64,000 bases of DNA from Mustelus asterias (taxonomy: Eukaryota): NCBI RefSeq assembly GCF_964213995.1, contig NW_027590128.1:806001-870000 (forward strand), in the 5' to 3' direction. The notes beneath the pieces are model-generated. The model was not told the DNA's origin, searched no databases, and worked only from the letters and a program-made list of their open reading frames with translations. Below, in pieces: positions 11,245 to 61,098 of this stretch. Both the position numbers and the translations under genes were made by a program. Each line of letters starts with the position of its first letter. Positions within the stretch are counted from its first letter, which is position 1.

Positions 11245-11579
11245 GAAGTTATAAGGGGAAGATTTGCTGCCAGCAATCTCAAAACATGTTAAGGCTTAAT
11301 AGAGTCACTCAAATTATCAGAACCTGAATATCATCAGACTTTGAATCGAGAAGAAGAAATATTTATCTGTTTTTTCTGTCACATCAGTGTGACTGGAAAG
11401 GCACCAAGGAACACAGAGCTGAGTGAGAGTGTCCAGTACACTGACTGTCAAAAGACCAGTTACACAGACTGCAAAAATATCACATCATTTACAGCGGGGA
11501 CAGACAGTACACATGCTCTATGAATGGATGAGGATTTAACTGATTGTTAAACCTGGAAAGACACAAGGACATCCACACC

Positions 11580-12794
11580 ATGGAGAAACCGGGGAAAGAT
11601 GAGGATTGTGGTAAGGAATTCCGTATCCCGTCTGCACTGCAAACTCATCAACATATTCACACTGGGGAGAGACTGTTCCCCTGCTCCAAGTGTGGGGAAG
11701 GAGACTGCTCCCCATCTGCCCTGAAGATTCATCAATGCAGCCACACTGGGGAGAGGCCCTTCATCTGCTCCGAGTGTGGGAAGGGTTTTCTCCAGGCAGC
11801 CGACCTGTGGAATCACCAAGCAGTTCACAGTAGGGAGAGGCTGTACACCTGCTCTGATTGTGGGAAGGGATTCACTCAGTTATCCCACCTGCTGACACAC
11901 CAGCAAGTTCACACTGGGGAAAAACCGTTCAACTGCTCTGAGTGTGGGAAGCAATTCAATCATTCATCTGAACTTTTGAATCACCAACAAATCCACACCG
12001 GAAAGCGACCATTCACCTGCTCCGACTGTGGAAAGGGTTTCACTCAGTCATCTCACCTGCAGATACACCAGCGAGCCCACACTAAGGAGAGGCCTTTCAA
12101 CTGCTCTGAGTGCAGGAAGTGTTTTATTCAGTTATCACACCTAGTGACTCACCAGGGAGTCCACAGGAGGGAGAGGCCGTTCCCCTGCTCCGAGTGTGGG
12201 AAGCGTTTTATTCAGTTATCACACCTAGTGACACACCAAGGAACCCACACAAGGGAGAGGCCATTCAGCTGCCCCGAATGTGGGAAACGTTTTATCCAAT
12301 CGTCACACCTAATGTCACACCAGGGAGTTCACAGCAGGGAGAGGCCATTCGTCTGCTCCGAGTGTGGGAGGCGTTTTATTCAATCATCCCACCTAGTGTC
12401 ACACCAGGAGGTTCACACCAGGGAGAGGCCATTCACCTGTTCCGAGTGTGGCAGGGGATTCATTCAGTTATCCGACCTGCAGAATCACCAGCAAGTTCAC
12501 ACCGGGGAGAGGCTGTTCACCTGCTCTGAGTGTGGGAAGGGATTCACTCGTTCAGCTAACCTGCAGGCACACCGACGTGTTCACACCAGGGAGAGACCAT
12601 TCACCTGCTCTGAGTGTGGGAAAGGATTCGCTCTTTCATCTTATCTGCAGAGTCACCAGCAAGTTCACACCGGAGAGAGGCCGTTTATCTGCTCTGAGTG
12701 TGGAAAGGGATTCATGCAGTCATCCCACCTGCTGACACACCAGCGAGTTCACAAGGATTCACAAAGGGATTCACTCAGTCATCCCACCTGCTGA
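11580..12794 (+). CDS. Tandem C2H2 zinc-finger protein (ZNF-3), 13 fingers plus one degenerate
   Basis: Open frame from ATG (MEKP) with 28-aa CxxC...HxxxH repeats and TGERPF-like linkers; no effector domain. Confidence 0.88.
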
Positions 12795-13029
12795 GACACC
12801 AGTAAGTTCTCAAGTGATGACAGTGGTTGGATTCTGCTGTTATTGCTGCTGTTAATCACATCCGGGACTGAACTATGTTCATTTTGACAATTGGTGAAGT
12901 GGGAGGGTTGGAGGGTTTCTTTCTGCTGGACTGGCCGGTCTCACAACTTTGTTTTCAGTGGACTGATGCTCTTTGAGTTTGGGAGAGCACATTTCCACTG
13001 AAATGATCCACAAAAAAAAAGCTGATGAA

Positions 13030-13120
13030 TGTGCCAACTCGACACAGCCACCCAAGGCCGGAATCAAACCTGGGTCCCTGGGGCTGTGAGCCAACTGGTC
13101 TAACCACTGTGCCACCATAT
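13030..13120 (-). mobile_element. V-SINE tRNA-head fragment
   Basis: Matches the SINE head at 51420-51486 (CTAACCACTGTGCCACC, GGGTCCCTGG). Confidence 0.6.
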
Positions 13121-13129
13121 CATGGACCC

Positions 13130-18670: not shown

Positions 18671-19889
18671 TCAGTCCTGCATGGGATTAGCAGCAACGGC
18701 AGAATCCAATCCCTGCAGTGACTTGTGAACTTGCTGGTGTCTCAGCAGATTGGCTGACCGAGCAAATCTCTTCCCACATACGGAGCAGGTGAATGATCTC
18801 TCTCCAGTGTGAACTTGCTGGTGTTTCAGCAGGTCCTTAGTGCTTTTAAAACTCTTCTCACACTCAGAACATTTGAAAGGTCTCTGATCAGTGTGGACCA
18901 GTTGATGTGCAATGAGCTGGGGTGGCTGAGTGAATCGTTTCCCACATGTGGAGCAAGCGAAGGGTTTCTCCCCAGTGTGAATTCGCTCGTGTATCAGAAG
19001 GTGAGGTGAATCCCTTCCCACACACACAGCAAATGAATGGCTTCTCCCCGGTGTGAACTCGCTGGTGTCTCAGACGGTGGGATGAATGGGTGAATCCCAT
19101 CCCACACACCGAGCAGGTGAACGGTTTCTCCCCAGTGTGAACTCGCTGGTGTGTCACCAAATCCTGTTTACTTTTAAAGCTCTTCTCACAGTCAGAACAC
19201 TGAAATGGTCTCTTATCAGAGTGAACTCGCTGGTGTGTTTGCAGCTGGGTTAAACGTCCGAATCTCCTCTCACACACGGAGCAGGTGAATGGCTTCTCCC
19301 CAGTGTGAGTGCGCTGATGGACTTGTAAATCATTTTTACTTTTAAATCTCTTCTCACAGTCAGAACATTGAAATGGTCTCTGATCAGTGTGAACAAGTTG
19401 GTGTGTCAGAAGGTGGGATGACTGAGTGAATCCCTTCCCACACACTGAGCAGGTGAACGGTCTCACCGCCATGTGAGTGCGCTGGTGTCTCAGGAGGTCC
19501 TTTGTGCTTTTAAAGCTTTTCTCACAATCAGAACACTGAAACAGTCTCTGATCGGAGTGAACCTGCCGGTGAATCAGGAGGCTTGATAAAGCATGACATC
19601 CCTTCCCACATTCGAGGCAGGTGAATGGCCTCTCACCAGTGTGAACACGCCGGTGTGTATAGAGGCTGGATGAGTAAGCAAATCCTTTCCCACACTCAGA
19701 GCAGGTGAATGGCCTCTCACCAGTGTGAATGCGACGATGAATATCCAATTCGGACGGGTAATTGAATCCCCTCCCACAGTCACCACATTTCAGTGGTTTC
19801 TCTGTGGAGCGGGTATCCTCATGTGACTCCAGGTTGGATGATGAGTTGAAGCCACGTTTACACAGAATATGTGTCGGGTCACTACTCAC
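18671..19889 (-). pseudogene. Tandem C2H2 ZNF (ZNF-4), 13 fingers with a frameshift in finger 10
   Basis: ORF 18888-19889 (9 fingers) continues in ORF 18671-19027 after a small deletion near 19005; C-tail LQGLDS...QD* as in ZNF-9. Confidence 0.8.
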
Positions 19890-20390
19890 TGAGAATGATG
19901 TGATTATTTTTCAGACTTTTTAAACCACTTTCCACATTCAGCACATTGGAAACTCTCAGGTGTGTTTGTGTGTAGGTGCTTTTTCAGTCACACTGATGTT
20001 TGAAATCTTTGCCCGCAGACAGAATGAACATTTCTCCTTCTGGAGACAAAGGCTGACGATATTCAGTTTCTGATTAATCAAATCACTGAAACAGATCTTG
20101 ATGTGAAGTTTGGTTTGAGTTTCACATCTGTAAATCCTGCTTCATAATACCCTGCAAAAACAGTTTACAAATACCATCACTGTCAGTGCAGGATAGAAAT
20201 TCTGAACAGACAATTCATAGTTTCTCTGGAACATATTTTCCTCTCTTGTTCCCCCAAATCTATAAATCCCCGTCCCACACACTCTCCCTCCTCCCCTGGG
20301 CTGAAATCCAAACCCATCTCACCATCTCCACCATTTCTTCCCTCCACTCCCAGTTTTCTCCCTCCCTCTCCTCTGTCTGGGTTCAGTTCT

Positions 20391-20675: not shown

Positions 20676-20849
20676 CTGGGTTCAGTTCTCCAGCTCCTGT
20701 CTGCAGACTGACAATAAAACCAATGGGTCTTATTGGGGGTGTTGGGGCCTCCAGAGGGTGTTTGTGAATCCTCCCCGCCCACCTCCCAGGGTTTCCTTCC
20801 TTCCCAGAGATCAGAGTCCTCATTGATTTGAGGCCAAAGTGTAACCTCT

Positions 20850-21980
20850 TATTTATTGTCCCCCTCCCCCATCCTCTGATGTGAACCATCCTCCAGTGGC
20901 TGAGCCAGGATGGGGCCGTTAACCTGGGCCTGTTCCCGGGAGGGAGGGAGGGAGAAGCCCCGCAGCTGCAAACCAGGGAGCTGACAATGATTCTGAAGGG
21001 TTTGCGGATCCACAAAGTGTTTCCAAATCCTCCCAGCCACCGCCTGACGCTGACTCCGCTACTCCGGGACAAACAAGCGCCAAGGACAGCACTGACACTG
21101 CGCATGCTCCACATCACAATGCCCGGGGACTGATTGACGGCAGCTCCGGACCAATAGGAAGAGGGGGCGGGGCTGGGGGACCGAGCGGGAGCGGCTGGTC
21201 CTCCAGCCAATCGGAGTGAATGAGGGGCGGGACCTGAAGCATGCGCAGTGCGGGTAATGGCGACGGACGGCCGGTTTTAGTTTGGAAGCGAGATCATTAC
21301 GAGGTAGAGGGCGGCGTGCGGGGAATGATAAATGTGGCGGGTGGGTGGAGAGACTTTGTAAACATGTTGTTCAACCCCAAACCCCGGAAATGAACTTCCC
21401 GGTCCCCCCCTTTGTACCAAATGGAGCGGCAGCTTGTAGTGTTAGACCCGGGCTGACTGCCGCCATTGAGGCTGCATGTGGGAGGCCGGCAGAGGTTGTG
21501 ATCGGAGAGTGAAGCCCTGACGTCACAATGGAATGAGTGAGGGTGTGACATCACAATGCAATGGGTGAGGGTGTGACGTCACAATGGACTGGGTGAGGGT
21601 GTGACGTCACGAGGGTGTGACGTCACAATGGAATGTGATCGGAGAGCAAAGTTTCACTCTGAAGCTCATTGGACAACTTCCGCATTGTGATGCCACGATA
21701 GAGCCCTACCTGAATCAGCCAATAGGAATCACTCTGCTCCGCGGTGACGTCTCTGGGTTCCAGTGAGCAGGCCCGGGCGCGCGGACCCAGGAGCCCCGCC
21801 CCCACCCATTGTTCCCCTCCCCCTGCACCACATCGAGCCAAGGTTTCCAGGCAACCGACTGGCGGCTCCGGCCAGAGCGAGAAGCCGCTCGGTGATCTCC
21901 CCCTCCCCCTGGCCCGGGACTGCAAAATGTCTAAGGGAGGGGGAAGCTGTGCATATGCGGGGGAGAACCCACCCTCTGAA
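20850..21980. promoter_or_regulatory. Bidirectional CpG promoter P3 between ZNF-4 (-) and ZNF-5 (+)
   Basis: Head-to-head genes; NRF1-like, CCAAT, GC-box, ETS-like (ACTTCCCGG), YY1-like (GCCGCCATT) motifs and a CRE array. Confidence 0.75.
21515..21634. repeat. 28-bp CRE minisatellite, about 4.5 units
   Basis: GAGGGTGTGACGTCACAATGGAATGGGT-like units; 4 perfect TGACGTCA. Confidence 0.85.
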
Positions 21981-22408
21981 TGAGAGAGGAAAGAATGTTC
22001 CATAGAAATTGTCTGTTCTGAATTTCTATCCTGTACTGACACTGATGACTTTTGTAAACTCATTTTACAGGATATTGAAAGAGGAATCACAGGCCGAAAT
22101 CTCAAACGTCACGTTTCGACGTGACAGTCATATCCCTTGTCATCGGACTTTGAATCCAGAAGGAGAAATGATTGTCCAGTCTGTCGATTTGAAAAGATTT
22201 GAAATGTCAGTGAGAGTGAAAAAGCATCAACACACTGCCACACTTGAGTGAGTGTGTTCCAATGCACTGACTAAAGAGCTTTAACCAGTTACACAGCCTG
22301 AACAAATATCACACCATTCACAGCGGGTGGAGACTGTAATCTTGTTCTGTGTGTGGATGAAGTTTCAACTAATTGTCCACTCAAGAGAGAGGCAAGGACA
22401 CCAGCACC

Positions 22409-23676
<1,268 letters not shown>

Positions 23677-27440: not shown

Positions 27441-27447
27441 GTGCATA

Positions 27448-29631: not shown

Positions 29632-30189
29632 CAGTAATGCACTGTATTACCTGGTTAGAGAGACATGAAGAATGTGAGGAGGATTTTTATTGAGGCAGCG
29701 AGTGGTGACCTGGAAGTTAAAAATTGAACTCCAGAATGAGAAAAGAAATGGAAAGGGGGAGAAAAGAAAGTGTCGACCGATAATTGGTTCACATCAGTCA
29801 TTCAATGTTGAGACATCTTGAACAGGAGCCAATTCATTCCCTCCAGTCAAGGTTAACAAGTCCTTTCAGCTTTTTTTATTCTGTCAGCATGAGAAGGGAA
29901 CATCTTATAATTCCCACAGCATTTTAACCATTCTTAATGTGTTTACAATTCTAAACGTTATAAACTTGTGTTCAAATTTACATTTCCAGCCTTTATAACA
30001 TTTGTATTAATGAATCATTTATTATTTAATTGTCTCACAATTAATGCTGTCTATTTAACTAATCTGGCTGCTTTCCAATTGTGGGAACTTCAGGCCACAA
30101 AAAAGGTAGTTAGAGTCATAGAGGTTTACAGCATGGAAACAGGCCCTTCGGCTCAACTTGTCCATGCCGCCCAGTTTTAGTCCTAATTG

Positions 30190-30889: not shown

Positions 30890-31750
30890 TTAATCCAACA
30901 CAGGATTGGTCAGAATCATTTCACATGTCCCAAATTTTAAATAACCATTACAAATTAAAACTCTCATTCTCACATGTGTGAATTGTATCCGGATTAAAAT
31001 TCCTGCATGTTTAGTAAAATATCCTGGAATCATGTAAATATTGTTCCCACACTGAGAGCAGATAAACGGTCTCTCCCCAGTGTGAACTCGCTGGTGTCTC
31101 CGCAGGGTGGATAAATCAGTGAATCCCTTCCCACACTGAGAGCAGGTGAATGGTCTCTCTCCAGTGTGAACTCGCTGGTGCGTCTGGAGGCTGGATAAAT
31201 GAGTGAATCCCTTCTCACACTGAGAGCAGATGAACGGTCTCTCCCCAGTGTGAACTCGCTGGTGTGTCCGCAGGTTAGCTAACTGACTGAACCCCTTCTC
31301 ACACTGAGAGCAAATGAACGGTCTCTCCCCAGTGTGAACACGCTGGTGCGTCTGCAGGTTAGATAACTGACTGAACCCCTTCTCACACTGAGAGCAGGTG
31401 AATGGTCTCTCCCGAGTGTGAACTCGCTGGTGTGCCTGCAGGCTGGATAACTGACTGAATCCCTCCCCACACTGAGAGCAGGTGAAGGGCCTCTCTCCAG
31501 TGTGAACTCGCTGGTGGGTTTGCAGGCTGGATGATTGAGTGAATCCCTCCCCACATTGAGAGCAGGTGAACGGTCTCTCCCCAGTGTGAACTCGCTGGTG
31601 TGCCTGCAGCTGGGACAACCGAGTGAATCCCGCCCCACAGTGAGAGCAGGTGAATGGCCTCTCCCCAGTGTGGCTGCGCCGATGAGCTTCCAGCAGGGAT
31701 GGGTATCTGTATCTCTTCCCACAGTCGCCACATTTCCATGGTTTCTCCAT
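30890..31750 (-). CDS. Tandem C2H2 ZNF (ZNF-6), 8 fingers fused to a non-ZNF tail
   Basis: MEKPWKC at 31750 (upstream in-frame ATG at 31795); finger 9 breaks at about 31045 and the frame runs on for about 50 aa. Confidence 0.75.
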   Translation of the reverse strand: MEKPWKCGDCGKRYRYPSLLEAHRRSHTGERPFTCSHCGAGFTRLSQLQAHQRVHTGERPFTCSQCGEGFTQSSSLQTHQRVHTGERPFTCSQCGEGFSQLSSLQAHQRVHTRERPFTCSQCEKGFSQLSNLQTHQRVHTGERPFICSQCEKGFSQLANLRTHQRVHTGERPFICSQCEKGFTHLSSLQTHQRVHTGERPFTCSQCGKGFTDLSTLRRHQRVHTGERPFICSQCGNNIYMIPGYFTKHAGILIRIQFTHVRMRVLICNGYLKFGTCEMILTNPVLD

Positions 31751-32594
31751 GGTGCAGGTGTCCTTGCCTCTCTCTTCAGTTGAAGACTCGTCCATACACA
31801 GAACAGTCCCCCCACACCTCCCCCCCGCTGTGAATGGTGATATTTATTCAGGCTGTGTAACTGGTTCAAGCTCAGTGCACTGGAACACACTCACTCCAGT
31901 GTGGCAATGTGTTGGCGCTTTTCCAGTCACACTGATGTTTGAAATCTTTTCAAGTCACCAGACCGGACAACCATTTTTCCTCGATTCAAAGGCCGATGAT
32001 ATTCAGGTCCCAAGGAATATGACTCTGTCAGATCTAGATGTGACATTTGAGATTTCAGCCTGTGATTCCTCTTTCGATACCCTGTAAAATGAGTTTACAG
32101 AGGTCATCAGTGTCAGTGCAGGATAGAAATTTAGAACAGACAATTCAAGTTTCTATTGAACATTCCTTCCTCTCTGCAGACTCGAAACATTGGCTCTATT
32201 CTCTCTCTATCTGGGGGATAGCGTGGGAAATGATGCTGCGGTAGATCAGCCAATTCTCAATGAATGGTTGAGGCAGTTCGATGGGCTGAATGGCCAACTG
32301 CAGCTCCTGTTTCTTATGATTTCTGTGTCCAGGACAGGAAGCAGTGAGCATGGATCTGTCAATCAGCCTCAATCAGCACCTTCAGGAGAATTGGGAGGGT
32401 GAATATTAGATACAGCAGAGTGAGAATGGAGGGAGAGTGTGTGGGATGGAGATTTGCAGCTTTTGGGGAACGAGAGAGGAAAGAATGTTCATTAAAATAA
32501 TAGAATTCTTACATCTTATCAGCTGTCCCTGAGCCTTCACAATGAATCTCTCTTCTCAGGACACTCTTATCTCTGAGTTGTCTGTGCTGCTCGC

Positions 32595-33450: not shown

Positions 33451-33454
33451 GGTT

Positions 33455-33960
33455 TGAGAGAGAGAGAAACCTGGGCCAACCTTTCCAGAGTCTGCAGCCT
33501 CCCTGGATTCACTTCCTTTATCTTCAGTTACTGCAAGTCCCCAATTTCCCCCAGAATGAGAAAAGAAATGGAAAGGGGGAGAAAAGAAAGTGTTTTACTC
33601 ACAGATGTTTGAGACAGGAGGAGGTTTGAGTCTGTCTGAAGATCAATCTTCATTCACACAAAGCCCGCGTTCTGATTGGCTGGAGGACCAGAGTCCTTCC
33701 GGTCCTCCAAGTCTTCCCATTGGTCAACCCCTCAGCACCAAGGTCAGGGGGTGGGATCTCCGCCGCGCGGACCCGGGAGCCCCGCCCCCACCCATTGTTC
33801 CCCTCCCCTTGCACCTCCTCGAGCCAAGGTTTCCAGGCAACTGGCTGGCCGCTCCGGACAGAGCGAGAAGCCGCTCGGTGATCGCCCCCTTCCCCCGGCC
33901 TGCGCATGTCCAAGGGAGAGGGGAAGCTGCGCATGTGCGGGGGTGCTCCCGCTGACCTGC
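33455..33960 (-). promoter_or_regulatory. ZNF promoter module P4 (upstream of ZNF-6)
   Basis: CCAAT pair with GGAGGACC/GGTCCTCC dyad, two TGCGCATG; shares blocks with P2, P3, P5 and P6. Confidence 0.65.
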
Positions 33961-34620: not shown

Positions 34621-34841
34621 ATCTTGGTTTTACACAATCTTGGTTTGCGTGATGGATTGGGCTACACTACGACCTTTTGTAGATCCTTGTGGTCTTGGGC
34701 AGAGCAGGAGCCATATCAAGCTGTGATACAACCAGAAAGAATGCTTTCTGTAAAAATTGGTCAGAGTCATATCTGAAATGCCACATTTCGAAGTCTCACA
34801 ACACCAGGTTAAAGTCCAACAGGTTTATTTGGTAGCAAATA

Positions 34842-34878
34842 CCATAAGCTTTCGGAGCACAGCTCCTTCGTCAGATGG
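34842..34878 (-). ncRNA. Hammerhead ribozyme motif in the inverted left pLTR
   Basis: Exact reverse complement of 38672-38708. Confidence 0.7.
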
Positions 34879-37900: not shown

Positions 37901-38463
37901 TTGATGAAGACGAACATCTCACCAAGGCCATCCCCACACCCCCACTTCTTGCCTTCAAACAACCACGCAACCTCAAACAGACCATTGTCCGCAGCAAACT
38001 ACCCAGCCTTCAGGAGAACAGTGACCACGACACCACACAACCCTGCCACAGCAACCTCTGCAAGACGTGCCGGATCATCGACACGGATGCCATCATCTCA
38101 CGTGAGAACACCATCTACCAGGTACACGGTACCTACTCTTGCAACTCGGCCAACGCTGTCTACCTGATACGCTGCAGGAAAGGATGTCCCAAGGCATGGT
38201 ACATTGGGGAAACCATGCAGACGCTACGACAACGGATGAATGAACACCGCTCGACAATCACCAGGCAAAACTGTTCTCTTCCTGTGGGGGAGCACTTCAG
38301 CAGTCACGGGCATTCAGCCTTGGATCTTCAGGTAAGCGTTCTCCAAGGCGGCCTTCACGACACACGACAGCGCAGAGTCGCTGAGCAGAAACTGATAGCC
38401 AAGTTCCGCACACATGAGGACGGCCTAAACCGGGATGTTGGATTTATGTCACATTATCAGTAA
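34995..38463 (+). pseudogene. PLE polyprotein, split by CR1 and with YIDD mutated to *IDD
   Basis: YANIF (36030) joins MHRFEQDF (37318); TAA at 37381-37383 precedes IDD, in frame with ORF 37480-38463. Confidence 0.88.
36033..37314 (-). mobile_element. Young CR1 inserted antisense into the PLE RT
   Basis: 391-aa RT ORF 36131-37306; (TTCTTATG)n tail; 5-bp TSD TTCAT (36028-36032, 37315-37319). Confidence 0.93.
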
Positions 38464-42444: not shown

Positions 42445-43203
42445 TCATTTGTGAATCTGTTGGTGTTTCTGCAGGTTGGATAACCGAGTCAATCCCTTCC
42501 CACACACAGAGCAGGCGAACGGTCTCTCCCCAGTGTGAACTCGCTGGTGTATCCGCAGTGCAGATGACCATTTAAATCTCATTGTGCAGTGAGTGCAGCT
42601 GAACGGTCTCTCCTCAGTGTGAATGCGCTGGTGGGACACCAGATCCACTGAGCTTTTGAATCCGCTCCCACAGTCAGAACATTTAAAGGGTCTCTCATTG
42701 GTGTGAATGAGATTGTGTCTCAGCAGGATGGATAGCTGAGTGAACCCGTTCCCACACACAGAGCAGGTGAACGGCCTCTCCCCAGTGTGAACTCGCTGGT
42801 GTTTCCGCAGGTGGATTGTCGTTCTAAACATTTTTGTGCAGTGAGAGCAGCTGAACGGTCTCTCCTCAGTGTGAATGCGCTGGTGAGACTTCAGTTCTCG
42901 AGAACTTTTAAATCCACTCCCACAGTCAGTACATTTAAAGGGTCTCTCATTGGTGTGAGTGACTTTGTGACTCAGCAGGTGGGAGGACCGAGTGAATCCC
43001 TTCCCACACTGAGAGCAGGTGAATGGCCTCTCCCCAGTGTGAACACGCTGGTGTCTCTGCAGGTGGGATGACTGAGTGAATCCCTTCCCACAATCAGAGC
43101 AGCTGAACGGTCTCTCTCCAGTGTGACTGCGTCGATGAGTTTCCAGCTCTGATGGGGCATTGTATCCCTTCCCACAGTCCCCACATTTCCACGGTTTCTC
43201 CAT
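42445..43203 (-). CDS. Tandem C2H2 zinc-finger protein (ZNF-7), 9 fingers
   Basis: Intact ORF MEKPWKC...HQQIHK*. Confidence 0.9.
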
Positions 43204-43944
43204 GGTTCGGGTGTCCTTGTGACTCTCCAGGTTAAACAATCAGTTAAATCTCACACAGAACACGGGTACAGTCTCTCCCCGCTGTGAATGCTGCGATGTA
43301 TTTTCAGGCTGTGTAACTGGTTAAAGCTCTTTCCACACTCAGTGCACTGGAACACTCTCACTCGGGTGTGTGTGAGTCTCGGTGCTTTTCCAGTCACACT
43401 GATGTTGAGAATCTTCTGAAGCAGACAGAACAGAGAAACATTTCACCTTCTAGAATCAAAGGTCAGTGATATTCAGGTCCCGATAAATTGAATGCTGACG
43501 TGATGTTTGTTTTGAGTTTTTGTCTGTAAATCCTCACCTTCTGATATCCTGTAAACGAGTTTGAAAAATTCACCATTGTCAGTACAGCATAGAAATTCAG
43601 AACAGACAATTCTAGTTTCTATAGAACATTCTTTCCTCTCTCATTCCCCAAAACTGTAAATCTCCATCCCACACACTCTCCCTCCATTCTCACTCTGCTG
43701 TATCTAATATTCACCCTCCCAATTCTCCTGAAGGTGCTGATTGAGGCTGATTGACAGATTCATGCTCACTGCTTCCTGTCCTGGACACAGAGAGCTGGAA
43801 ATCTCCATGCAGGAGAATAACAGAAATATGGCTACTTTCCTCGACTAAGAATGTTTTAAATGGATTGTTTCAGTTAGTGAAGATACAGGGGGTTGTGATT
43901 GATGATAGTCTTGAACTTGCTGCCTGTGAGGGTGGTCATAGAGT

Positions 43945-44772: not shown

Positions 44773-44809
44773 ACCTCCTGCTCTTAATATACTGACAGAA
44801 CACCTTTGG

Positions 44810-45400
44810 AATTGCTCACAGGTGTTGCTGAGAGGAGGAGGTTTGGTCTGAAGCTCATTGGCCAACCGACTTCCGCATTCAGACAATGGGAGCTCTGATT
44901 GGCTGGAGGACCAGACTCCTTGCGGTCCTCCAACTCTTCCCATTGGTCAAAATCTCAGTATGTCTCAGCTGGTGGGCACCTCCCCCGCACATGCGCAGCT
45001 TCCCTCTCCCTTGAACATGCGCAGTCCGGGCCGGCGGGAGGAGATCACCGAGCGGCTTCTCGCTCTGGCCGGAGCTGTCAGCCGGTTGCCTGGAAACCTT
45101 GGCTGGAGGAGGGGGAGGGGAAAAATGGGTAGGAACGGCCGGGCCTGCGCATTGAAACCGCAGTGACGTCACCGGAGAGCAGCGACATTCCTATTGGCTG
45201 ATTCAGGCAGGGCTCTATCGTGACGTCACAATGCAGAAGTTGTCCAATGAGCTTCAGAGTGAAACTTCCTCCTCTGGGCAACATCTGGGGGGAAATCAAT
45301 GTTTCCCCATTTCCATTTCTTTTCTCATTCTGGGGGAAATTGGGGACTTGCAGCAACTGAAGGGTAAGGTCGTGAATCCAGTCTGTATATTCCTCACATT
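44810..45400. promoter_or_regulatory. Bidirectional promoter P5 between ZNF-7 (-) and ZNF-8 (+)
   Basis: GCGCATGTGC/CATGCGCA, two TGACGTCA, several CCAAT boxes, dyad element; mirror-image core ends. Confidence 0.75.
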
Positions 45401-46019
45401 TTTAGTCAGTCATATGGGCATATATCTGTCTGGCAGCCTGCATGGAGATTTTCAGCTCTCGGCAGGAAGCCGTGAGCACGGATCTGTCAATCAGCCTCAA
45501 TCAGCACCTTGAGGAGAATTGGGAGGGTGAATATTAGATACAGCAGAGTGAGAATGGAGGGAGAGTGTGTGGGATGGAGATTTACAGCTTTTGGGGATTG
45601 AGAGAGAAAGAATGTTTCATAGAAACTGGAATTGTCTGTTCTGAATTTCGATCCTGTACTGACACTGATGACTTGTGTCAACTTGTTTTACAGGATATTG
45701 AAAGAGGAATCACAGGCTAAAATCTCGAACGTCACGTCTAGATCTGACAGAGACATATTCCTTGGGACCTGAATATCATCGGCCATTGAATCTGGAAGAT
45801 TTGAAAAGATTTCAAACATCAATCTGACTGAAAAAGCACCAACACACTTCCACATTCAAGTGAGAGTGTTCCAGTGCACTGATTGAAGAGCTTTAACCAG
45901 TTACACAGCCTGAATAAATATCACACCATTCACAGCGGGGAGAGACTGTACACTGTTGTGTGTGTGGATGAGGCTTCAGCTGATTGTCCACCCAAGGGAG
46001 AGGCAAGGACACCTGCACC

Positions 46020-46861
46020 ATGGAGAAACCATGGAAATGTGCGGACTGTGGAAAGAGATACAGAGCACCATGTCGGCTGGATGCTCATCGGCGCAACCAC
46101 ACTGGGGAGAGGCCATTCATTTGCTCTCAATGTGGGGAGGGATTCATTCGGTTCCCCCACCTGCAGTCACACAAGCGAATTCACACTGGCGAGAGACCGT
46201 TCACCTGCTCTCAGTGTGGAAAGGGATTCACTGTGTCATCCACTTTGCAGAGACACCAGCGAATTCACACTGGGGAGAGGCCGTTCACCTGCCCTCAGTG
46301 TGGGAAGGGATTCAACCAGTTATCCAATCTATGGACACACCAGCGAATTCACACTGGGGAGAGGCCATTCATCTGCTCTCAGTGTGGGAAGGGATTCACT
46401 CGGTCATCTGACCTGCAGACACACCAGCGAGTTCACACTGGGGAGAGGCCATTCACCTGCTCTCAGTGTGGAAAGGGATTCACTGTGTCATCCGCCTTGC
46501 AGAGACACCAGCGAGTTCACACTGGGGAGAGGCCATTCACCTGCTCTCAGTGTGGGAAGAGATTCACTCAGTCATCCGTCCTGCGGACACATCAGCGCAT
46601 TCACAGCGGGGAGAGGCCGTTCACCTGCTCTCAGTGTGGGAAGGGTTTCAGTCAGTTATCCAACCTGCGGAGACACCAGCGAGTTCACACTGGGGAGAAA
46701 CCGTTCACCTGCTCTCAGTGTGGGAAGGAATTCACTCAGTGATCCCACCTGTTGAGACATCAGTGAGGTTACACTGGGGAGAAACCGTTCACCTGCTGAG
46801 TGTATAAAAAGGGTTCAGAATTTCATCCCAGCTGCTGAGACACCAACAAGTTCACGAGTGA
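46020..46861 (+). pseudogene. Tandem C2H2 ZNF (ZNF-8): 8 intact fingers, then premature TGA (46740-46742); may encode a truncated protein
   Basis: ORF 45984-46742; decayed fingers 9-10 end at the ancestral CACGAGTGA. Confidence 0.75.
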
Positions 46862-47923: not shown

Positions 47924-48309
47924 TGTACTTACACCTCAGGCATTGTAGCAGTTCAGGAAGGCAGTGTTGGGGTTAACCATGTCTGAGGCAGCTACATACA
48001 GCCACATATTCTGTTATAATTGAAGGACAGCAGATTGAATGTGAGGCATTATGGGACTGGACTATCTTGACCACATTCCTGTGACTGCTCAGTTTCTGCA
48101 ATCACGGACCATTAAAGCTGCTTAGCAGGGCCCCAACAGAGGACCTGGTGAGAATATTTACTCAGAATGAGTTAGAATTAATCTTATTCCAGCACCGCTG
48201 GTGTTCAGCGGCTGAGATACCCGAATCTGTGAACAGGAGGTCTGGCCAATCAACAAACAGTGGTAGATAGTTGGTTAAGAAGTTAAAGATATTGGTCAAC
48301 ACCTCAGTA

Positions 48310-48878
48310 TGAAGATCAGAGGGTGGGCTCTCCCCAGCACATGTGCAGCTTCCCCTCTCCCCCGCACATGCGCAGTCCCGGGCCGGGGGGAGGGGGAGCT
48401 CACCGAGCGGCTTCTCGCTCTGTCCGGAGCCGTCAGCCGGTTGCCTGGAAACCTTGGCTCGATGTGGTGTAGGGGGAGGGGAACAATGGTGGGGGGCGGG
48501 TCTCCCGGGTCCGTGCCCCGAGCCTGCGATTGGAACCCGGAGACGTCACCGCGGAGCAGAGTGATTCCTATTGGCTGATTCAGGCAGGGCTCCATTGTGA
48601 CATCACAATGTGGAAGTTGACCAATGAGCTTCAGAGTGAAACTTCCTCCTCTGTACAACACCTGGGAGGAAATCAATGTTTCCCCCTTTCCATTTCTCTT
48701 CTCATTCTGGGGGAAATTGGGGACTTGCAGCAACTGAAGGGAAAGGAAGTGAATCCAGTCTGTATATTCCACACATTTCTACTCCAGTAATGTAGACATT
48801 TATCTGTCTGGCAGCCTGCATGGAAATTTTCAGCTCTCTGCATCCAGGGCAGAAGCAGTGAGCATGGATCTGTCAATC
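48310..48878 (+). promoter_or_regulatory. Orphan copy of the ZNF promoter/first-exon module (P6)
   Basis: Highly similar to 44980-45490; no ZNF exon follows. Confidence 0.7.
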
Positions 48879-49268
48879 ACACATGAGGACGGCCTCAACC
48901 GGGATCTTGAGTTCATGACACACTATCTGTAACCCCCACAACTTGCCTAGGCTTGCAAAATCTCACTAACTGTCCTGGCTGGAGACAATACACATCTCTT
49001 TAACCTGTGCTTAACCCTCTCTCCACTCACATTGTCTGTACCTTTAAGACTTGATTACCTGTAAAGACTCGCATTGCAACCATTATCTTGTAAATTGAGT
49101 TTGTGTCTTTATATGCCCTGTTTGTGAACAGAACTCCCACTCCCCTGATGAAGGGGCAGCGCTCCGAAAGCTAGTGGCTTATGCTAACAAATTAACCTGT
49201 TGGATTTTAACCTGGTGTTGTGAGATTATTTACTGTGCTTACCCCAGTCCAACGCCGGCATCTCCACA
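48878..49268 (+). mobile_element. PLE 3' fragment with pLTR and hammerhead motif (49142-49176)
   Basis: THEDGLNRD-coding end plus terminal repeat; CTGATGA-A-GGGGC-AGC-GCTCC-GAAA-GCTA. Confidence 0.85.
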
Positions 49269-51486: not shown

Positions 51487-51540
51487 GGTCACATGTCAGT
51501 GCCATCGCCCGACTCCAGCCCAGTCTCAGCTCATCTGGAA

Positions 51541-51790
51541 CCCTCACCCATTCCATTGTGACGTCACATTCTCACCCATTCCATTGTGACGTCACACCCT
51601 CACCCATTCCATTGTGACGTCCCACCCTCACCCATTCCATTGTGACGTCACACTCTCACCCATTCCATTGTGACGTCACACCCTCACCCATTCCATTGTG
51701 ACGTCACACTCTCAACCATTCGATTGTGATGTCACACTCTCACCCATTCCATTGTGACGTCACACCCTCACCCACTCCATTGTGACGTCA
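51541..51790. repeat. 28-bp CRE minisatellite, 9 units
   Basis: CCCTCACCCATTCCATTGTGACGTCACA x9; 7 perfect TGACGTCA. Confidence 0.92.
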
Positions 51791-52470
51791 GGGCTTCACT
51801 CTCCGATCACAATCCCTGCCGGCCTCCCACATGCAGCCTCAATGGCGGCAGTCAGCCCGGGTCTAACACTACAAGCTGCCGCTCCATTTGGTACAAAGGG
51901 GAGGGACCGGGAAGTTCATTTCCGGGATTTGGGTTTGAACAACATGTTTACAAAGCCTCTCCACCCACCCGCCACATTTATCATTCCCCGCGCGCCGCCC
52001 CCTACCTCGTATTGCTCTCGCTTCCAAGTTAAAACCGTCCGTCTGTCGCCATTACCCGCACTGCGCATGCTTCAGGTCCCGCCCCTCATTCATTCCGATT
52101 GGTTGGAGGACCAGCCGCTCCCGCTCGGTCCACCAGCCCCGCTCCCTCTTCCTATTGGTCCGGAGCTGCCGTCAATCAGCCCCCGGGCATTGTGATGTGG
52201 AGCATGCGCAGTGTCATTGCTGTCCTTGGCGCTTGTTTGTCCCGGAGAAGCGGAGTCAGCGTTAGGCGGTGGCTGGGAGGATTTGGAAACACTTTGTGGA
52301 TCCGCAAACCCTTCAGAATCATTGTCAGCTCCCTGGTTTGCAGCTGCGGGGCTTCTCCCTCCCTCCCTCCCTCCCTCCCGGGAACAGGCCCAGGTTAACG
52401 GCCCCATCCTGGCTCAGCCACTGGAGGATGGTTCACATCAGAGGATGGGGGAGGGGGACAATAAATAAGA
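51790..52470 (+). promoter_or_regulatory. CpG promoter/first exon P7 of ZNF-9
   Basis: Inverted near-identical copy of 20850-21517; ETS-, NRF1-, YY1-like, CCAAT and GC boxes. Confidence 0.75.
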
Positions 52471-53211
52471 GGTTACACTTTGGCCTCAAATCAATGAGGA
52501 CTCTGATCTCTGGGAAGGAAGGAAACCCTGGGAGGTGGGCGGGGAGGATTCACAAACACCCGCTGGAGGCCCCAACACCCCCAGTAAGACCCATTGGTTT
52601 TATTGTCAGTCTACAGACAGCAGCTGGAGAACTGAACCCAGACAGAGGAGAGGGAGGGAGAAAACTGGGAGTGGAGGAAAGAAATGGTGAGATGGGTTTG
52701 GATTTCAGCCCAGGGAGGAGGGAGAGTGTGTGGGATGGGGATTTACTGATTTGGGGGAACAAGAAAGGAAAAAATGTTCCAGAGAAACTAGAATTGTCTG
52801 TTCAGAGTTTGTATCGTGTTCTGACAGTGATGACTTTTCTAAACTGTTTTTACAGGATATTGGAAGTGAAAGAATGGCAGTCGGAAAGCTCAAACCGGAC
52901 ATCACATCTGACAAAGTCATTCAGTTCCTTCGGAGCTGAATATCATTGGTCTTTGAATATAGAAAGAGAAATATTTGTCTGTTCTGCCTGTGGTCAAAGA
53001 AATTAAACATCAGTATGACCGGAAAAGCATCGAGACAAACACACCCGAGTGAGAGTGTTCCAGTGAACTGAATGTGGAAAGAGCTTTAACCAGTTACACA
53101 GCCTGAAAAAACATCACAGTTCACAGCAGGGTGAAACTACGTGTATGTTGTGTGTGTGGATGAGGCTTGAACTGATCATCCAACCTGGAGAAACACAAGG
53201 ACACCAGCCCC

Positions 53212-54360
53212 ATGGAGAAACCGTGGAAATGTGTGGAGTGCGGGAAGGGATTCGGTTTCCCATCACAACTGGAAGTTCATCGGCGCAGTCACACTGGGGA
53301 GAGACCGTTCACCTGCTCTGTTTGTGGGAAGGGATTCACCCATTCATACAACCTTCAGACTCACCGACGGGTTCACACTGGGGAGAGGCCGTTCACCTGC
53401 CCTGTGTGTGGGAAGGGATTCACTCGCTCATCCCACATTGTGACACACCAACTTGTTCACACTGATGAGAGAATGTTTACATGTTCTGACTGTGAGAAGA
53501 GTTTTAAATGCAAAAAAGATCTGCTGACGCACCAACGTATTCACACTGGGGAGAGACCGTTCACCTGCTCTGTGTGTGGGAAAGGATTCATTCAGTCATC
53601 TCACTTGCAGACACATCAACTTGTTCACTCTGATAACAAACTTTTTAATTGTTCCCACTGTGAGAAGAGCTTTAAAAATAAAAAAGATCTGCTGACGCAC
53701 CAATATGCTCACACTGGGGAGAGGCCATTCACCTGCTGTGTGTGTGGGAAGGGATTCAGCCGTCCATCTGCCCTATTGAACCACCAGAGAATTCACACTG
53801 GGGAGAGGCCCTTCACCTGCTCAGACTGTGGGAAGGGATTCATTAATTCATCCAACCTTCTGATACACCAGCAACTCCACACAGGGGATCGACCGTTCAC
53901 CTGCTCTGAATGTGGGAAGGGATTCACCCGTTCATACAACCTTCTGACACACCAGCAGGTTCACAGTGAGGAGAGGCCATTCACTTGCTCCGTGTGTGGG
54001 AAGGGATTCACTCGTTCATCCAACCTATTGAATCACCAGCGAGTTCACACTGGGGAGAGGCCGTTCACCTGCTCCACGTGTGGGAAGGGATTCAGTCAGT
54101 CATCCAACCTGCTGACACATCAGCGAGTTCACAGTGCGGAGAGGCCATTTACCTGCTCTGTCTGTGGGAAGGGATTTTCTCATTTATCTTATCTTCTGAA
54201 ACACCAGCGAGTTCACACTGGGGAGAGGCCGTTCACCTGTAATGTCTGTGGAAAGGGATTTATTCAGTCATCCCACCTGCTAACACACCGGCGAGTTCAC
54301 AAGGGACTGCAAGGTTTGGATTCTACACTTATTGATGCTGTTAATCATATCCAGGACTGA
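53212..54360 (+). CDS. Tandem C2H2 zinc-finger protein (ZNF-9), 13 fingers
   Basis: Intact 382-aa ORF from MEKPWKC; AATAAA at 54408. Confidence 0.92.
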
Positions 54361-55760: not shown

Positions 55761-57750
55761 TAATTCCTCCTCATTTCTCCCAGTGATGACCCTCAGTCCA
55801 TCTCCCAATTCAGTGAATGTGTTAAAAGTCCAAATAATCTCCTTTATTGTTTAAAATGGGAATGGAGGTGAATGTAATGCTGAGAGCGGCAGCAATCTGT
55901 GTGGTTGTTCTTGATGCTGTCAGAGTGAGTTCACCCTCACAGACAGGAAGACTGTTCATGGTGATAACATCAAACTGACGCCGGCTGTTTCATTCTCAGG
56001 TATCACAACTTCCTGTTTCTCTGCTGCCGGTTCCAAACCTCACATCTCACTTCTGAGCAGAAAATAAATCCAGGAACCACAATCTGGTGAGAACATCTGT
56101 CAATGTGACCGATATCTGTCCACAGAGTCAGGGCAGAGTCTCACAGGTCACATTGTGGTGACATTTACAAATGAGCCAGTTATTTCTGTTCAGAGTTTCC
56201 ATTCGCAGATATAACCAGCTGTGTCTGTGGATCAGTTACTGAGTTCCCTCTGCTCCCCATAGCTGGGAACTGATAGCCTGCTCCTTTATATTCCAGATCA
56301 TTCTCTCTGTATTGCTTGTTTCCTCTGATTCTCAGCTTTTATCTTTGACCACCTCATCTTTCTGCTTTTTAAATCTTTCTCAATTTTTCTCTGTCTTTCT
56401 GTCTCTCCCTTCCGCTGTATCTCTCTCAGGCTTTGTGTGTTCCTATTTAATCGAGCTGTTCAAAATCATGAAGAGTTTCTGATTGATTTTCGAAGGAAAA
56501 ACAGGGAGAGAAGCAGAAAAACCCAGCAGATCCGGCGGCATCTGTTCAAAGAGAAACAGTTAACATTTTGAGTCCATATAATTCTTCAGGGCAGGAAAAA
56601 CATGGGTTATCCACCTTAGATCAGGGAATGTAATGGGGAGAGGTGTTTAAAATGACAAATGATTTATGATAGTGTCAATGGAGAGAAATGATCTCCCAGG
56701 AGCACGAGGGTTTGTCGATGGAGAGAATCTATTTCCCCGGTGCAGGAGGGTCTGTAAGCAGAGGACACAGAGATTTAACTTAATTGACAACAGAACTGGA
56801 GGGGGTGATAAGGAGAATGTTTTACACAATAACTTGATATGATCTGGAATGCACAAACTGACAGGTGCTCGAAGCAGGTTTAGTAGTAACTTTCAAAGGG
56901 AATTGGATAAATACTTGCAGAAGGTAAATTGGCAGAGTTATGGTGAATGGGATTAATTGGACAGTTCACTCATCTTTGTGACATTCTGAATGTTTCTCTC
57001 CGAAGGTTTTAATATTTGATCTTTTCGGTCATAATGTGTCTCAAACAGAAGATTTAAACATTGGGTTTGATGAGCTGTCAGATCTCTTTCCTGTGTGTCT
57101 CTGTAACTTGCGAACTGGAGATAACCATGAGAAGGAACTGATTATTTTCAGTTCCTCTAACAGATTCCCCTCAGATATCAGGAATCCCTGGAGTTCCCCA
57201 TGTCCTCATTATTCTCCCCTTGAGTATAACAGCTCTCAGTCAGGCCGAGTCAGTCACATGTGTCTCTGTCATGATGTTTCCACTTGTATTTTATCACTCA
57301 CCTCCCAGTGACACTCACCATAACACAGACACCCTAAAATATCATTGTTCCCTTACACTTTGTCCTCCTATTATAATCAAATTTTTGTTGGGCCTCTTGT
57401 CTCCCTTAATGTCAGATTATCTGCAGTTAAAATGACCTCAGAGACACTGAAACCGACCTTTGTGATTATTATACCAGACTCCAATCAGCCCCAGGAGCTG
57501 CAGTTGTAAAATACAGCAGAATTGGAATAACAGACAGGTTATTGTCTGATAATGACAGTGGCAGAGTAACACACACTGGAATCTAAACACATTATATCAA
57601 TGGACCATGACTCACTCACACTATCAAATGAAACCTAAACTTTGGTTATGGTGCACGAGATACTGACTGTATTACCATTACATTGGATCCAATGCTGTGT
57701 TCACTAACATACTGCAACGTGACTCTTATTATTTGAACAAACATTGTATT

Positions 57751-58367
57751 TGTTACACTCAGAGTAAGTCAGTGTTTGCTGTGTTGTCTCTGTGCTCCAT
57801 CCCCACTCTGATTGTATTGGAGCCTGTGTGTGTCATTGTTACACTCAGAGTAAGTCAGTGCTTTGCTGTGTTGTCTCTGTGCTCCATCCCCACTCTGATT
57901 GTATTGGAGTCTGTGTGTGTCATTGTTACACTCAGAGTAAGTCAGTGCTTTGCTGTGTTGTCTCTGTGCTCCATCCCCACTCTGATTGTATTGGAGTCTG
58001 TGTGTGTCATTGTTACACTCAGAGTAAGTCAGTGTTTGCTGTGTTGTCTCTGTGCTCCATCCCCACTCTGATTGTATTGGAGCCTGTGTGTGTCATTGTT
58101 ACACTCAGAGTAAGTCAGTGCTTTGCTGTGTTGTCTCTGTGCTCCATCCCCACTCTGATTGTATTGGAGTCTGTGTGTGTCATTGTTACACTCAGAGTAA
58201 GTCAGTGCTTTGCTGTGTTGTCTCTGTGCTCCATCCCCACTCTGATTGTATTGGAGTCTGTGTGTGTCATTGTTACACTCAGAGTAAGTCAGTGCTTTGC
58301 TGTGTTGTCTCTGTGCTCCATCCCCACTCTGATTGTATTGGAGCCTGTGTGTGTCATTGTTACACTG
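57751..58367. repeat. 86/87-bp tandem repeat, 7 units
   Basis: Units start at 57751, 57837, 57924, 58011, 58097, 58184, 58271 (partial at 58358). Confidence 0.95.
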
Positions 58368-58374
58368 AGATTCT

Positions 58375-58900
58375 GTCACTGTGATTATTGGACAAGCAGC
58401 AAGTCACCGTCACAATGCCCGGCTGATTGACGGCAGCGTGGACCAATGGGAAGAGGGGGCAGTGCTGGAGGACCGACCTGGAGCGGTCGGTCATCGAACC
58501 AATAGGAGCGAATGAGGGGCGGGGCCAGCTTTGACTCGAGCATGCGCAGTGTGAGTAATGGCAATGGAAAGCGGCTTTTGTTTTGGGCTCGGAAATCTGT
58601 TAGAGGTGATTGGCGGTACGGAGAGAGCAATGGATCGTCCAGGTTGGTGGAAACGCTGCGTAAGCATGTTGTGTAAGCCGCAAACCGCGGAAGAGAGCTT
58701 CCCGGACCCAGTTTGTACCGAGCAGGGCTGCAGCTCCTCATGTTCGTCCCGGGTTAACGTTCGCCATCTTTATTGGGGGCAATATACAGCAGTGCGCATG
58801 TGCGGCCGCCATGTTTGTAGAGGGCAATATTGTCTATCATTGGGAGGAGCTTGTTCCCCATTGTTCAGAATGGAGACAACTTGTCCATCAAACTGTATCA
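58375..58900. promoter_or_regulatory. ZNF promoter module P8 (upstream of ZNF-10)
   Basis: CCAAT pair, GC box, GCATGCGCA, two CGCCAT (YY1-like); paralogous to 62360-62855. Confidence 0.65.
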
Positions 58901-60423
58901 ACCCTCTGAGTCCCAATGTCTTATTGATGAGGCAGAACGGTGACAGAGAAGGAGAAAAGAAAGGGAAATAAAAACAGTAAATGCTGGAAAATCTCAGCAG
59001 ATCTGACAGCATCTGTGGAGAGAGAATAGAACCAATGTTTTGAGACTGGATGACCCATAGACAGAGCTTGTACACGTGTAAACAGAGCATGTAAACTTTG
59101 ACATCTCCATGTACCCTTGTACACCTCTATCAATCTACTTTGCTCCAAGGAGAACAACCCCAAGTTATCCAGCCTAACATTGTAACTATAATTCCTCATC
59201 CCTGGAACCATTTTGATAAATCTCCTCTGCACCCTGTCAAGGAGCCTCACATCCTCCATAATGTGTGGTGATCACTGGTTTGCACAGACCCAGGTATTCT
59301 GTGTTCCTGTCTGTGATCTCATCACATACTTACAATTGCACAGTGACATCACCCCCACTCCCCAGGGATTTCCTCAACTGGGAGATTTTTCTCTGATGCC
59401 AATGCTTCTGATATCTTTCCAGCTGCAGGCTCCAGCAGGAGATTTTAATATTAAAATCAGTTAAATTGTTTCAGAGGTGAGTGTTTGTGACCATTCACCC
59501 ACAATTTAGAGTTTTAAATGATGTGCTCTGTTATCTGTGCTCTGGTTCCACATCTCTTGGGCTGGTCTGACTCCTTTACTGTGGATCTGAATCCATGTCC
59601 ATTCATTGCTCTGCTTCACCTCTGCCCTCCCTGATCACCTCTCAGTCATTGTCTAACTTCCTCTGCCTCTAATAATGGCTGTATTTTAGTTATGCTGCTG
59701 GTTTAGCAGCTTTATCTTAGAATCATAGAATGCCGACAGTGCAGGAGGCCATTTGGACACGTTTCTGTGTGTGGCCAAGGCTTCAGTCAATCATCTGGTC
59801 TGTCAATTAATGGGTCATTAATCTTTGCAGTTCTCTTCCCTCGAGAGCAATGGAGGTGCATCATTAAATATAGGGTCAAGGGTTATGGGTGACAGGAAGA
59901 AAATGAAGCCAAAATCACAATCAGATTAGCCAGGATCTTATGAAATTGAACAGCAGACTTGGTGGGCTGAATGTCCTACTCCTTCTCCTGTTTCATAGGA
60001 TCTTGTTGCTTGGTCGAAAACAAGAAATGGTGAGTGTCAACATGGATTAGCACCTTGAGGAGAATTGGGAGGGTGAATATTAGATACAGCAGAGTGAGAA
60101 TAGAGGGAGAGTGTGTGTTGCAGGGGAGGTGGGGGGAATGGAGCAAGGGGTAGTTACTTACAGGTTTTGGGGAATGAGAGAGGAAAGAATGTTTCACAGC
60201 AACTAGAATTGTCTGTTCTGAGTTTCTGAGCTGTACTGACTGTGATGACATTTGTAAACTCCTTTTACAGGATATTAAAAGGAGAGGATTTGCCACAAGA
60301 AATCTCAAACTAAACTTCACATCAAGATCTGACAGTGTCACTCAATTCATTTGGACGCAGGGAGCCATCGCCCAGTTACCATCAGTGTGACTACAAAAGC
60401 ACCGAGACACAGACAGCCATACC

Positions 60424-61098
60424 ATGGGGAAACCGTGGAAATGTGCAGATTGTGAGAAGAGATTCACTTCCCCATCTCATCTGGAAATTCACAGGCGCAG
60501 TCACACCAGGGAGAGACCGTTCACTTGCTTCCAGTGTGGGAAGGGATTTGCTAATTCATCAAACTTGCTGACACACCAGCGAGTTCATTCTGGGGAGAGT
60601 CCCTTCACCTGCTCCATGTGTGGGAAAGGATGCAGAAATTCATCCACCCTGCTGGCACACCAGCGAGTTCATAACGGGGAGAGTCCATTCAGCTGCTCCG
60701 ACTGTGGGAAGGGATTCATTAATTCATCAAGCCTCCTGAGACACCGGCGAGTTCACACTGGGGAGAAACCCTTCATCTGCTCTGCATGTGGGAAGCGATT
60801 TAGTCAGTTATCCAGCCTTCTGACACACCAGCGAGTTCACACTGGGGAGAAGCCATTCACCTGTTCGACCTGTGGGCAGGGATTCGCTCGGTCATCCCAT
60901 CTGTTGAGACACCGTCGAGTTCACACCGGAGAGAGGCCATTCACCTGTTCTGTGTGTGGGACAGGATTCACTCGATCATCCCACCTGCTGAAACACCAGC
61001 GAGTTCACACTGGGGAAAAGCCGTTCATCTGTTCTGACTGTGGGAAGGGATTCACCCAGTCAACCAGCCTGCTGAGACATCAGGGAGTTCACAAATGA
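60424..61098 (+). CDS. Tandem C2H2 zinc-finger protein (ZNF-10), 8 fingers
   Basis: Intact ORF MGKPWKC...HQGVHK*; conserved acceptor at 60270. Confidence 0.9.

Follow-up and report, generated by a model that had tools for sequence, protein, structure and literature searches.

The window analysed here is a stretch of 64,000 nucleotides (nt) from Mustelus asterias (assembly GCF_964213995.1, contig NW_027590128.1, positions 806,001 to 870,000, forward strand). Between 11.2 and 61.1 kb it contains eight C2H2 zinc finger (ZNF) paralogs on both strands, namely Z11k, Z19k, Z22k, Z31k, Z43k, Z46k, Z53k, and Z60k. Lying within 50 kb, they form a tandem cluster, whose members appear to start translation at a codon born in a finger linker and carry fossil fingers directly upstream. 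Four copies are intact, Z11k, Z43k, Z53k, and Z60k, with 13, 9, 13, and 8 fingers, respectively. Two broken sister-type genes and fragments of retroelements also lie in the window. The named proteins nearest to the window ZNFs come from Heterodontus, Pristiophorus, Heptranchias, Scyliorhinus, Mustelus, and two skates (19 of 35 matches), and exact copies of seven window proteins are absent from the protein collection. A tree of the leaders, the segments upstream of the arrays, resolves only the group Z22k/Z31k/Z46k (support 1.0). The turnover of the cluster is one of birth and death of copies. Coordinates are collected in Table 1.

The arrays consist of tandem C2H2 fingers connected by TGE(K/R)P linkers in a single reading frame. 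In the four clean copies the last finger is followed by a tail of 1-19 amino acids (aa), which, from the inferred start onwards, leaves a finger-only architecture. Pfam analysis of Z43k and Z53k returns zinc-finger-type matches alone, apart from noise below the cutoff, and the ESM Atlas places Z43k among generic ZNF clusters. Z22k and Z46k contain an identical TGA at helix position +1 in identical context. As seven in-frame fingers follow the TGA of Z22k, fingers have been lost on the 3' side too.

An ATG is found at the head of the array in seven of the eight paralogs, while Z19k (19805, -) has ACA. The proteins would begin with MEKP at 11580(+), 31750(-), 43203(-), 46020(+), and 53212(+), with MAKP at 22409(+), and with MGKP at 60424(+). 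The context is ACCATGG in six of the seven and CCCATGG at 53212. A preliminary description had listed these starts and assigned the Met to the Gly position of a linker. The list is accurate, with the correction that Z31k has a further in-frame ATG 15 codons up. The assignment is borne out by the sister subfamily, which has HTGEKP before the same finger; in its broken member Z5k, H-T-G-E-K aligns to the R-T-M-E-K of the MEKP genes. The ACCATGG context does not by itself point to selection. In every TGE linker a Thr codon (ACN) precedes the Gly position and a Glu codon (GAR) follows it, which already supplies the A at -3 and the G at +4, and the Kozak-like context is thus a by-product of these flanking codons. 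The role of the MEKP ATG as start is instead inferred from the point at which stops, indels, and neutral ratios of nonsynonymous to synonymous change (dN/dS) end. The Heterodontus models P0011 and P0013 begin with MERHKD, ten codons above the linker Met. The window copies have CTG in similar context at this site, which is possibly a second start.

The leaders share a common organisation. A branch-point and acceptor motif is present in all eight paralogs, 326-356 nt above the start (153 nt in Z60k), and the consensus of seven leaders comprises a spacer and three fossil fingers, F1 to F3. From F3 to the Met, the 28-residue register is preserved exactly. To score relics, 77 intact fingers from the window were combined into a DNA profile and a threshold of 8 bits was set, with 800 shuffled leaders as control. 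Six of the eight leaders contain relics of at least 8 bits, the best reaching 46.2 bits at 43352-43271 (F2 of Z43k), compared with none of the 800 shuffled leaders. Z31k remains below the threshold (7.4 bits), and Z60k, from which the relics are deleted, gives no match. Broken fingers had been reported upstream of several starts, and they do begin at 22257, 45869, and 53058, with the relic quoted at the time in frame and ending at 43251(-). However, the leader consensus holds three fossil fingers rather than one. The accompanying claim that relics and array share an exon agrees with the acceptor motif; the spliced joint itself is not seen in the contigs of presumed-RNA runs.

Several features bear on the decay of the fossil fingers. 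A TGA in F1 occurs in six of seven aligned copies and in Z60k, and a stop in F3 likewise in six of seven. Among seven paralogs, 28 indel events, 23 of them frameshifting, fall in the 360-nt leader versus none in the first 183 coding nt (binomial p 2e-5). Measured against the consensus, dN/dS is 1.02 in the spacer, 1.17 in F1, and 0.89 in F2-F3, and 0.43 in the first 61 codons after the ATG. Shared stops and neutral change since then imply that the fingers were dead before these copies arose, as had been proposed with the suggestion that N-terminal fingers were lost to the 5' untranslated region (UTR) prior to amplification. Judged by its sequence, the leader is non-coding. A Heterodontus model has Arg at the position of the F3 stop, and others retain the final His of F3 (P0008, P0005, P0009), which fits decay from genuine fingers. 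The Heterodontus model P0009 threads through the same frameshifted F2. Selenocysteine insertion or read-through at the leader TGAs was considered and rejected, as one copy has TAA, one AGA, and one TCA, with frameshifts all around. A word search with fossil F2 gave six matches among eight candidates, none of them named as shark, a weak sign that this fossil is absent from annotated proteins. Scans of metagenome and viral contigs for the DNA motif returned nothing.

Two further observations concern the leader region. The paralogs differ least (4% change) in a 20-nt intron block that precedes the branch point, roughly 65-45 nt upstream of each acceptor (e.g., 52790-52812). Rfam gives no match, so that this conserved end of the intron does not correspond to a known snoRNA. 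The deletion in the Z60k leader (60271-60423) took out every upstream ATG of the last exon and provides a natural control for leader function.

Table 1. Features of the ZNF cluster in the window (fossil fingers F1 to F3; ORF, open reading frame).
Feature	Position	Strand	Description
Z5k, broken sister-subfamily member	5152..6180	+	acceptor and spacer homologous to those of the MEKP genes; lacks F1-F2, retains an intact F3 with HTGEK linker
Z11k leader	11245..11579	+	predicted acceptor 11245, decayed spacer, fossil F1-F3; F1 TGA 11390, F3 TGA 11541
Z11k ORF	11580..12794	+	MEKP start, 404 aa, 13 C2H2 fingers, no interruption
Z19k array	18671..19805	-	probable pseudogene; ACA replaces ATG; 9 fingers, frameshift, 3 fingers
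Z19k leader	19806..20151	-	fossil fingers; TCA at F3 stop position
Promoter-like, between Z19k and Z22k	20676..21979		GC-rich, bidirectional; 20676-21635 94% identical to 51661-52641
Z22k leader	22071..22408	+	fossil F2 starts 22257; F3 stop TAA 22370
Z22k array	22409..23676	+	MAKP start; 5 fingers, TGA 22877-22879, 7 in-frame fingers, frameshift
Z31k ORF	30890..31750	-	MEKP start, 8 fingers; ninth truncated, runs into unrelated sequence
Z31k leader	31751..32081	-	11-nt deletion behind F3 TGA, resulting in an in-frame ATG 45 nt upstream
Promoter-like module, candidate short non-coding exons	33465..33943	-	common to upstream regions of Z11k, Z43k, Z46k; exons by splice motifs only
Z43k ORF	42445..43203	-	MEKP start, 252 aa, 9 fingers, no interruption
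Z43k leader	43204..43548	-	best-preserved fossil; F1 43441-, TGA 43396; F2 43352-43271; F3 43268-, TGA 43242
Promoter-like, between Z43k and Z46k	44809..45493		bidirectional; orphan copy 48291-48879
Z46k leader	45694..46019	+	fossil F2 starts 45869; F3 TGA 45981
Z46k array	46020..46797	+	MEKP start, 8 fingers; TGA 46740-46742 within ninth
Promoter-like, candidate Z53k first exon	51661..52641	+	covered by contigs of presumed-RNA runs
Z53k leader	52856..53211	+	spacer open for 49 codons in ancestral phase-2 frame; fossil F1-F3; F3 TGA 53173
Z53k ORF	53212..54360	+	MEKP start (CCCATGG), 382 aa, 13 fingers, no interruption
Z60k short leader	60271..60423	+	deletion fuses F1 to F3 end; F1 TGA 12 codons above start
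Z60k ORF	60424..61098	+	MGKP start, 224 aa, 8 fingers, no interruption

No effector domain is apparent upstream of the arrays. An in-frame stop precedes the ATG by 13 codons in five genes and by 12 in Z60k, i.e., in six of the seven ATG-bearing genes, Z31k being the exception. Consequently, in these six no exon joined at the shared acceptor can be translated through into the array. None of the 240 upstream open reading frames (ORFs) of at least 40 aa encodes KRAB, SCAN, or BTB, and only three reverse-transcriptase matches exceed the Pfam cutoff; such a scan would miss exons shorter than 40 codons and uncatalogued domains. The scan agrees with the earlier statement that none of the three domains is visible, and the Pfam lists of 19 elasmobranch relatives contain none either. 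In-frame joining of the type known from FiNZ genes is blocked at the shared acceptor by stops and frameshifts, with no FiNZ profile run and ORFs below 40 aa unscanned. The frame of the spacer is in phase 2 to the acceptor and is open in Heterodontus P0008. In P0019, P0015, and P0033 the spacer is in frame with upstream sequence, which holds no Pfam domain. The ancestor therefore probably had an upstream coding exon. A word search with the Heterodontus spacer produced no candidate for it. The skate proteins P0015 and P0033 have a common N-terminal stretch (residues ~20-60) in frame with the spacer, which includes P-x-V-x-L (PRVVL and PLVVL), the pattern of an HP1-binding motif. The stretch is possibly a trace of the ancestral effector. 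The ESM Atlas gave no lead for the skate N-terminus (best score 0.77). A coding N-terminus rebuilt from the candidate exons 33690-33470 and 10100-10290 was discarded, as a stop interrupts the first exon in one copy and the second exon of the other begins with TAA.

The relatives were sampled as 19 elasmobranch proteins, from which 28 rows were used after dropping five internal fingers from 33. The residue before the signature finger is M in ten rows, G in eight, T in six, and another in four; the signature pattern missed two further cases, P0004 (M) and P0018 (T). Proteins starting with MEKPWKC are recorded in RefSeq/UniRef for Heterodontus (horn shark) and Pristiophorus (sawshark). One genus falls in each of the two main shark groups, and the event that shifted the start is thus probably old. 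The three skate proteins show the sister form alone, a sample too small to call the MEKP form shark-specific, and the wider family includes skates. The sister subfamily of elasmobranchs starts with M(E/K)(G/A/S)KS..HSGEKPY and is named "zinc finger protein 271/91/850-like" in RefSeq (P0002, P0005, P0009, P0010; Z5k in the window). It shares the acceptor, the spacer, and the signature finger with the MEKP genes. In contrast to them, it lacks F1-F2, has an intact F3, and starts one finger further up, with upstream in-frame sequence in some members.

The variation within the arrays is concentrated at the DNA-contact residues. Across 79 fingers, variability peaks at helix positions -1 and 3, and 77 of the fingers keep the Leu at +4. 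The preliminary description had proposed a selection test at the contact residues. In the three pairs formed by Z22k, Z31k, and Z46k, the proportion of nonsynonymous differences (pN) at -1, 3, and 6 is 0.45-0.51, exceeding the synonymous proportion (pS) of 0.24-0.26 elsewhere (Fisher p 0.002-0.011), and pN elsewhere is 0.07-0.09. Along the 78 edges of a spanning tree of fingers, pN and pS at the contacts are equal (0.39), and the excess appears in the closest pairs. Within that range, the scaffold shows purifying selection, and contacts -1, 3, and 6 show diversifying selection.

Transcript evidence comes from contigs of relatives' runs whose RNA status is guessed, none being on record as RNA, and whose depth cannot rank the parts. 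Contigs from four such runs span the promoter-like region, leader, and array start of Z53k. Pieces that join the fossil fingers to the ATG, with at least 31 letters on each side, make up four of the 32 listed. Transcription appears to proceed from shared GC-rich, partly bidirectional promoters, with splicing at the shared acceptor and translation of the arrays presumed to follow. Additional copies of the promoter-like module lie at 48291-48879, 2511-2782, 58410-58887, and 62266-62853; the 48291 module has no ZNF exon behind it and terminates at a repeat insertion. Inside the shared module, a 28-bp tandem repeat containing TGACGTCA is found at 51540-51790 (9 copies) and 21518-21626 (~3 copies).

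The account that we consider likely is that of an N-terminally truncated family with a linker-derived start, amplified as bare, diversifying DNA-binding arrays. The ancestor, a member of a large tandem C2H2 family of elasmobranchs, would have had an upstream coding exon, a phase-2 junction, and a last exon with a spacer of ~40 codons followed by the array. In one shark lineage the spacer and the first three fingers died through nonsense changes in F1 and F3 followed by frameshifts, as the leaders show. Translation would then have shifted to the ATG at the Gly of the F3-F4 linker, and the shortened gene would have multiplied together with its promoter and leader. The products would be bare arrays of 8-13 fingers, most likely acting as sequence-specific DNA binders with a low-level output past several upstream ATGs. 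Binding to repeats or transposons would be steric or would involve cofactors that the fingers recruit. That repeats and transposons are the targets is a guess by analogy to FiNZ-ZNFs and ZNF146, to which we give somewhat less than an even chance. The original interpretation survives in its core, i.e., Met at the Gly position, dead upstream fingers, a blocked effector, and diversification at the contacts. ACCATGG adds nothing to it as a sign of selection, and it has to accommodate four damaged copies out of eight.

Several observations weigh against this account. The damage comprises a missing ATG, internal stops, truncation, and a frameshift. One to six upstream ATGs are present in seven of the eight leaders, some of them out of frame and overlapping the start, so that production of the arrays would require leaky scanning or re-initiation. 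The ATG is kept in six of seven aligned copies, as are 87 of 358 leader triplets, and its retention alone therefore proves little. Forms with TEKP and without this ATG occur in Heterodontus, Heptranchias, and Z19k. Many of the Heterodontus RefSeq models (P0001-P0013) measure 900-1600 aa and fuse several tandem genes (P0001 has three MEKP starts), and such multi-gene chimeras make annotated starts weak evidence. With regard to selection, pS at the contact codons themselves reaches 0.23-0.36, and the three pairs of paralogs lack independence and presuppose orthology of fingers with the same index, which may fail. Among the 15 joints listed of 58, no GT..AG joint is found, and one of the listed contigs reads across the acceptor without splicing.

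Alternatively, the cluster could be mostly decaying, co-duplicated DNA, in which the exchange of 84-nt units keeps arrays in frame and the MEKP ATG is rarely used. The damage to half of the copies, with two more pseudogenes nearby, and the numerous upstream ATGs speak for it, and the nonsense change common to Z22k and Z46k is expected under finger exchange. It is nevertheless very unlikely, given that the scaffold pN stays below pS in all three pairs (p <1e-5) and that Leu at +4 is conserved while -1, 3, and 6 vary most (the four Zn ligands being invariant by definition). Moreover, the non-repeated first finger is also free of indels, four copies have clean ORFs of 8-13 fingers, and the same start recurs in distant sharks. 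Even more improbable is an effector still supplied by TGA read-through or by alternative splicing past the fossil leader to an acceptor no more than 36 nt above the ATG. AG dinucleotides do exist between the F3 stop and the ATG, but no pyrimidine tract precedes them. Some Heterodontus models enter exactly there; these are the multi-gene chimeras, with unrelated upstream text. Candidate exons exist upstream and the sister-subfamily relatives P0019, P0015, and P0033 have N-terminal extensions, yet the candidates contain no common ORF, the 240 ORFs (at least 40 aa, catalogued domains) hold no domain, and frameshifts besides the stops exclude read-through.

A third possibility would add to the truncation account rather than replace it. 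The fossil leader may have been retained for a regulatory role as 5' UTR, restricting translation of the arrays or setting its timing through an upstream ORF (uORF) running from the F1 ATG to the shared TGA and through conserved blocks. Leader divergence is 0.12-0.15, about half the array synonymous divergence of the same pairs (0.24-0.26), although CpG decay or finger shuffling may inflate the latter. The best-kept 20-nt window beats shuffles at p 0.03, a marginal and uncorrected value. A uORF of 15 codons opens at the F1 ATG of Z43k, and this ATG survives in four of seven leaders and is lost in three. The relics are still legible in Heterodontus. However, Z60k remains intact despite the deletion of most of its leader, and Rfam contains no match, which makes such a role doubtful.

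The MEKP cluster resembles the diversifying clusters of KRAB- and FiNZ-type genes and belongs to neither. With tetrapod KRAB-ZNF clusters it shares tandem organisation, a last-exon array, TGEKP-type linkers, variable contacts, and birth and death, as set out in PMC2443715 and PMC4592553. In mammals, effector domains are reported to have been lost repeatedly as their sequences degenerated (Tadepally 2008, PMC2443715; Wolf 2015, PMC4592553). Unlike KRAB-ZNFs, the shark genes have no KRAB exon, their entire subfamily goes back to a truncated gene that lost three fingers along with its N-terminus, and the start codon sits in what used to be a linker. Cartilaginous fishes are stated to be without KRAB-ZNFs (PMC8455134, PMC11603059). 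The FiNZ-ZNFs of cyprinids are likewise a lineage-restricted, non-tetrapod expansion with positive selection on the fingers (Wells 2023, PMC10547256). According to the main text, FiNZ genes have an in-frame N-terminal exon of 28 aa, whereas the shark MEKP genes block upstream fusion. Repression of transposable elements by FiNZ genes rests on knockdown in zebrafish; the binding tests covered seven species, with no shark, and sharks are not named in the main text (PMC10547256). Its supplement gives 475-3586 ZNF ORFs per assembly for the eight chondrichthyan assemblies looked up.

ZNF146/OZF offers a parallel that is architectural only. It is a finger-only protein of ten C2H2 motifs that binds LINE-1 (L1), and is thus a precedent for transposon targeting by a bare array, although it is one conserved mammalian gene as opposed to an amplified family (Creamer 2022, PMC8896011). 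Its loss in HEK293 cells does not derepress L1, so that binding need not mean silencing (PMC8896011), and silencing by the shark arrays is less certain than binding. Shark ZNF counts (PMC10547256), effector loss by degeneration, and finger-only ZNFs are thus already on record. A literature search, which covered neither subscription papers nor supplement files 3-5 of PMC10547256, turned up no description of a gene family whose start derives from a linker and whose leader carries fossil fingers. It is conceivable, if unlikely, that a finger-only family of hundreds of genes or more, arising from one truncation before the main shark groups split, is the main shark counterpart of KRAB-ZNFs. It would track transposons without a repressor domain, with dead fingers throttling translation as 5' UTR. 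If a large share of shark ZNFs consisted of bare diversifying arrays, sequence recognition alone could drive expansion without a dedicated repressor domain, and the function of ZNF expansions outside tetrapods becomes testable in catshark embryos. The locus offers a clean example of a start codon born in a repeat linker, with the former N-terminus preserved as a neutral clock, and gives a rule to correct chimeric Heterodontus gene models.

A partial array occupies positions 1-198, a broken sister-type gene lies at 62900-63300, and the window end cuts the acceptor of another sister-type gene at 63965-64000. Long reverse-transcriptase-like ORFs are found at 27518-29686(-), 36131-37315(-), and 34813-38463(+). 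By their motifs, a putative CR1-like fragment appears to interrupt a putative Penelope-like element. At 32318-32507, upstream of the Z31k acceptor, the shared intron segment recurs in inverted orientation, which suggests a local inversion. An 87-bp tandem repeat (7.2 copies, 98% identity) at 57750-58370 adjoins the promoter-like region of Z60k.

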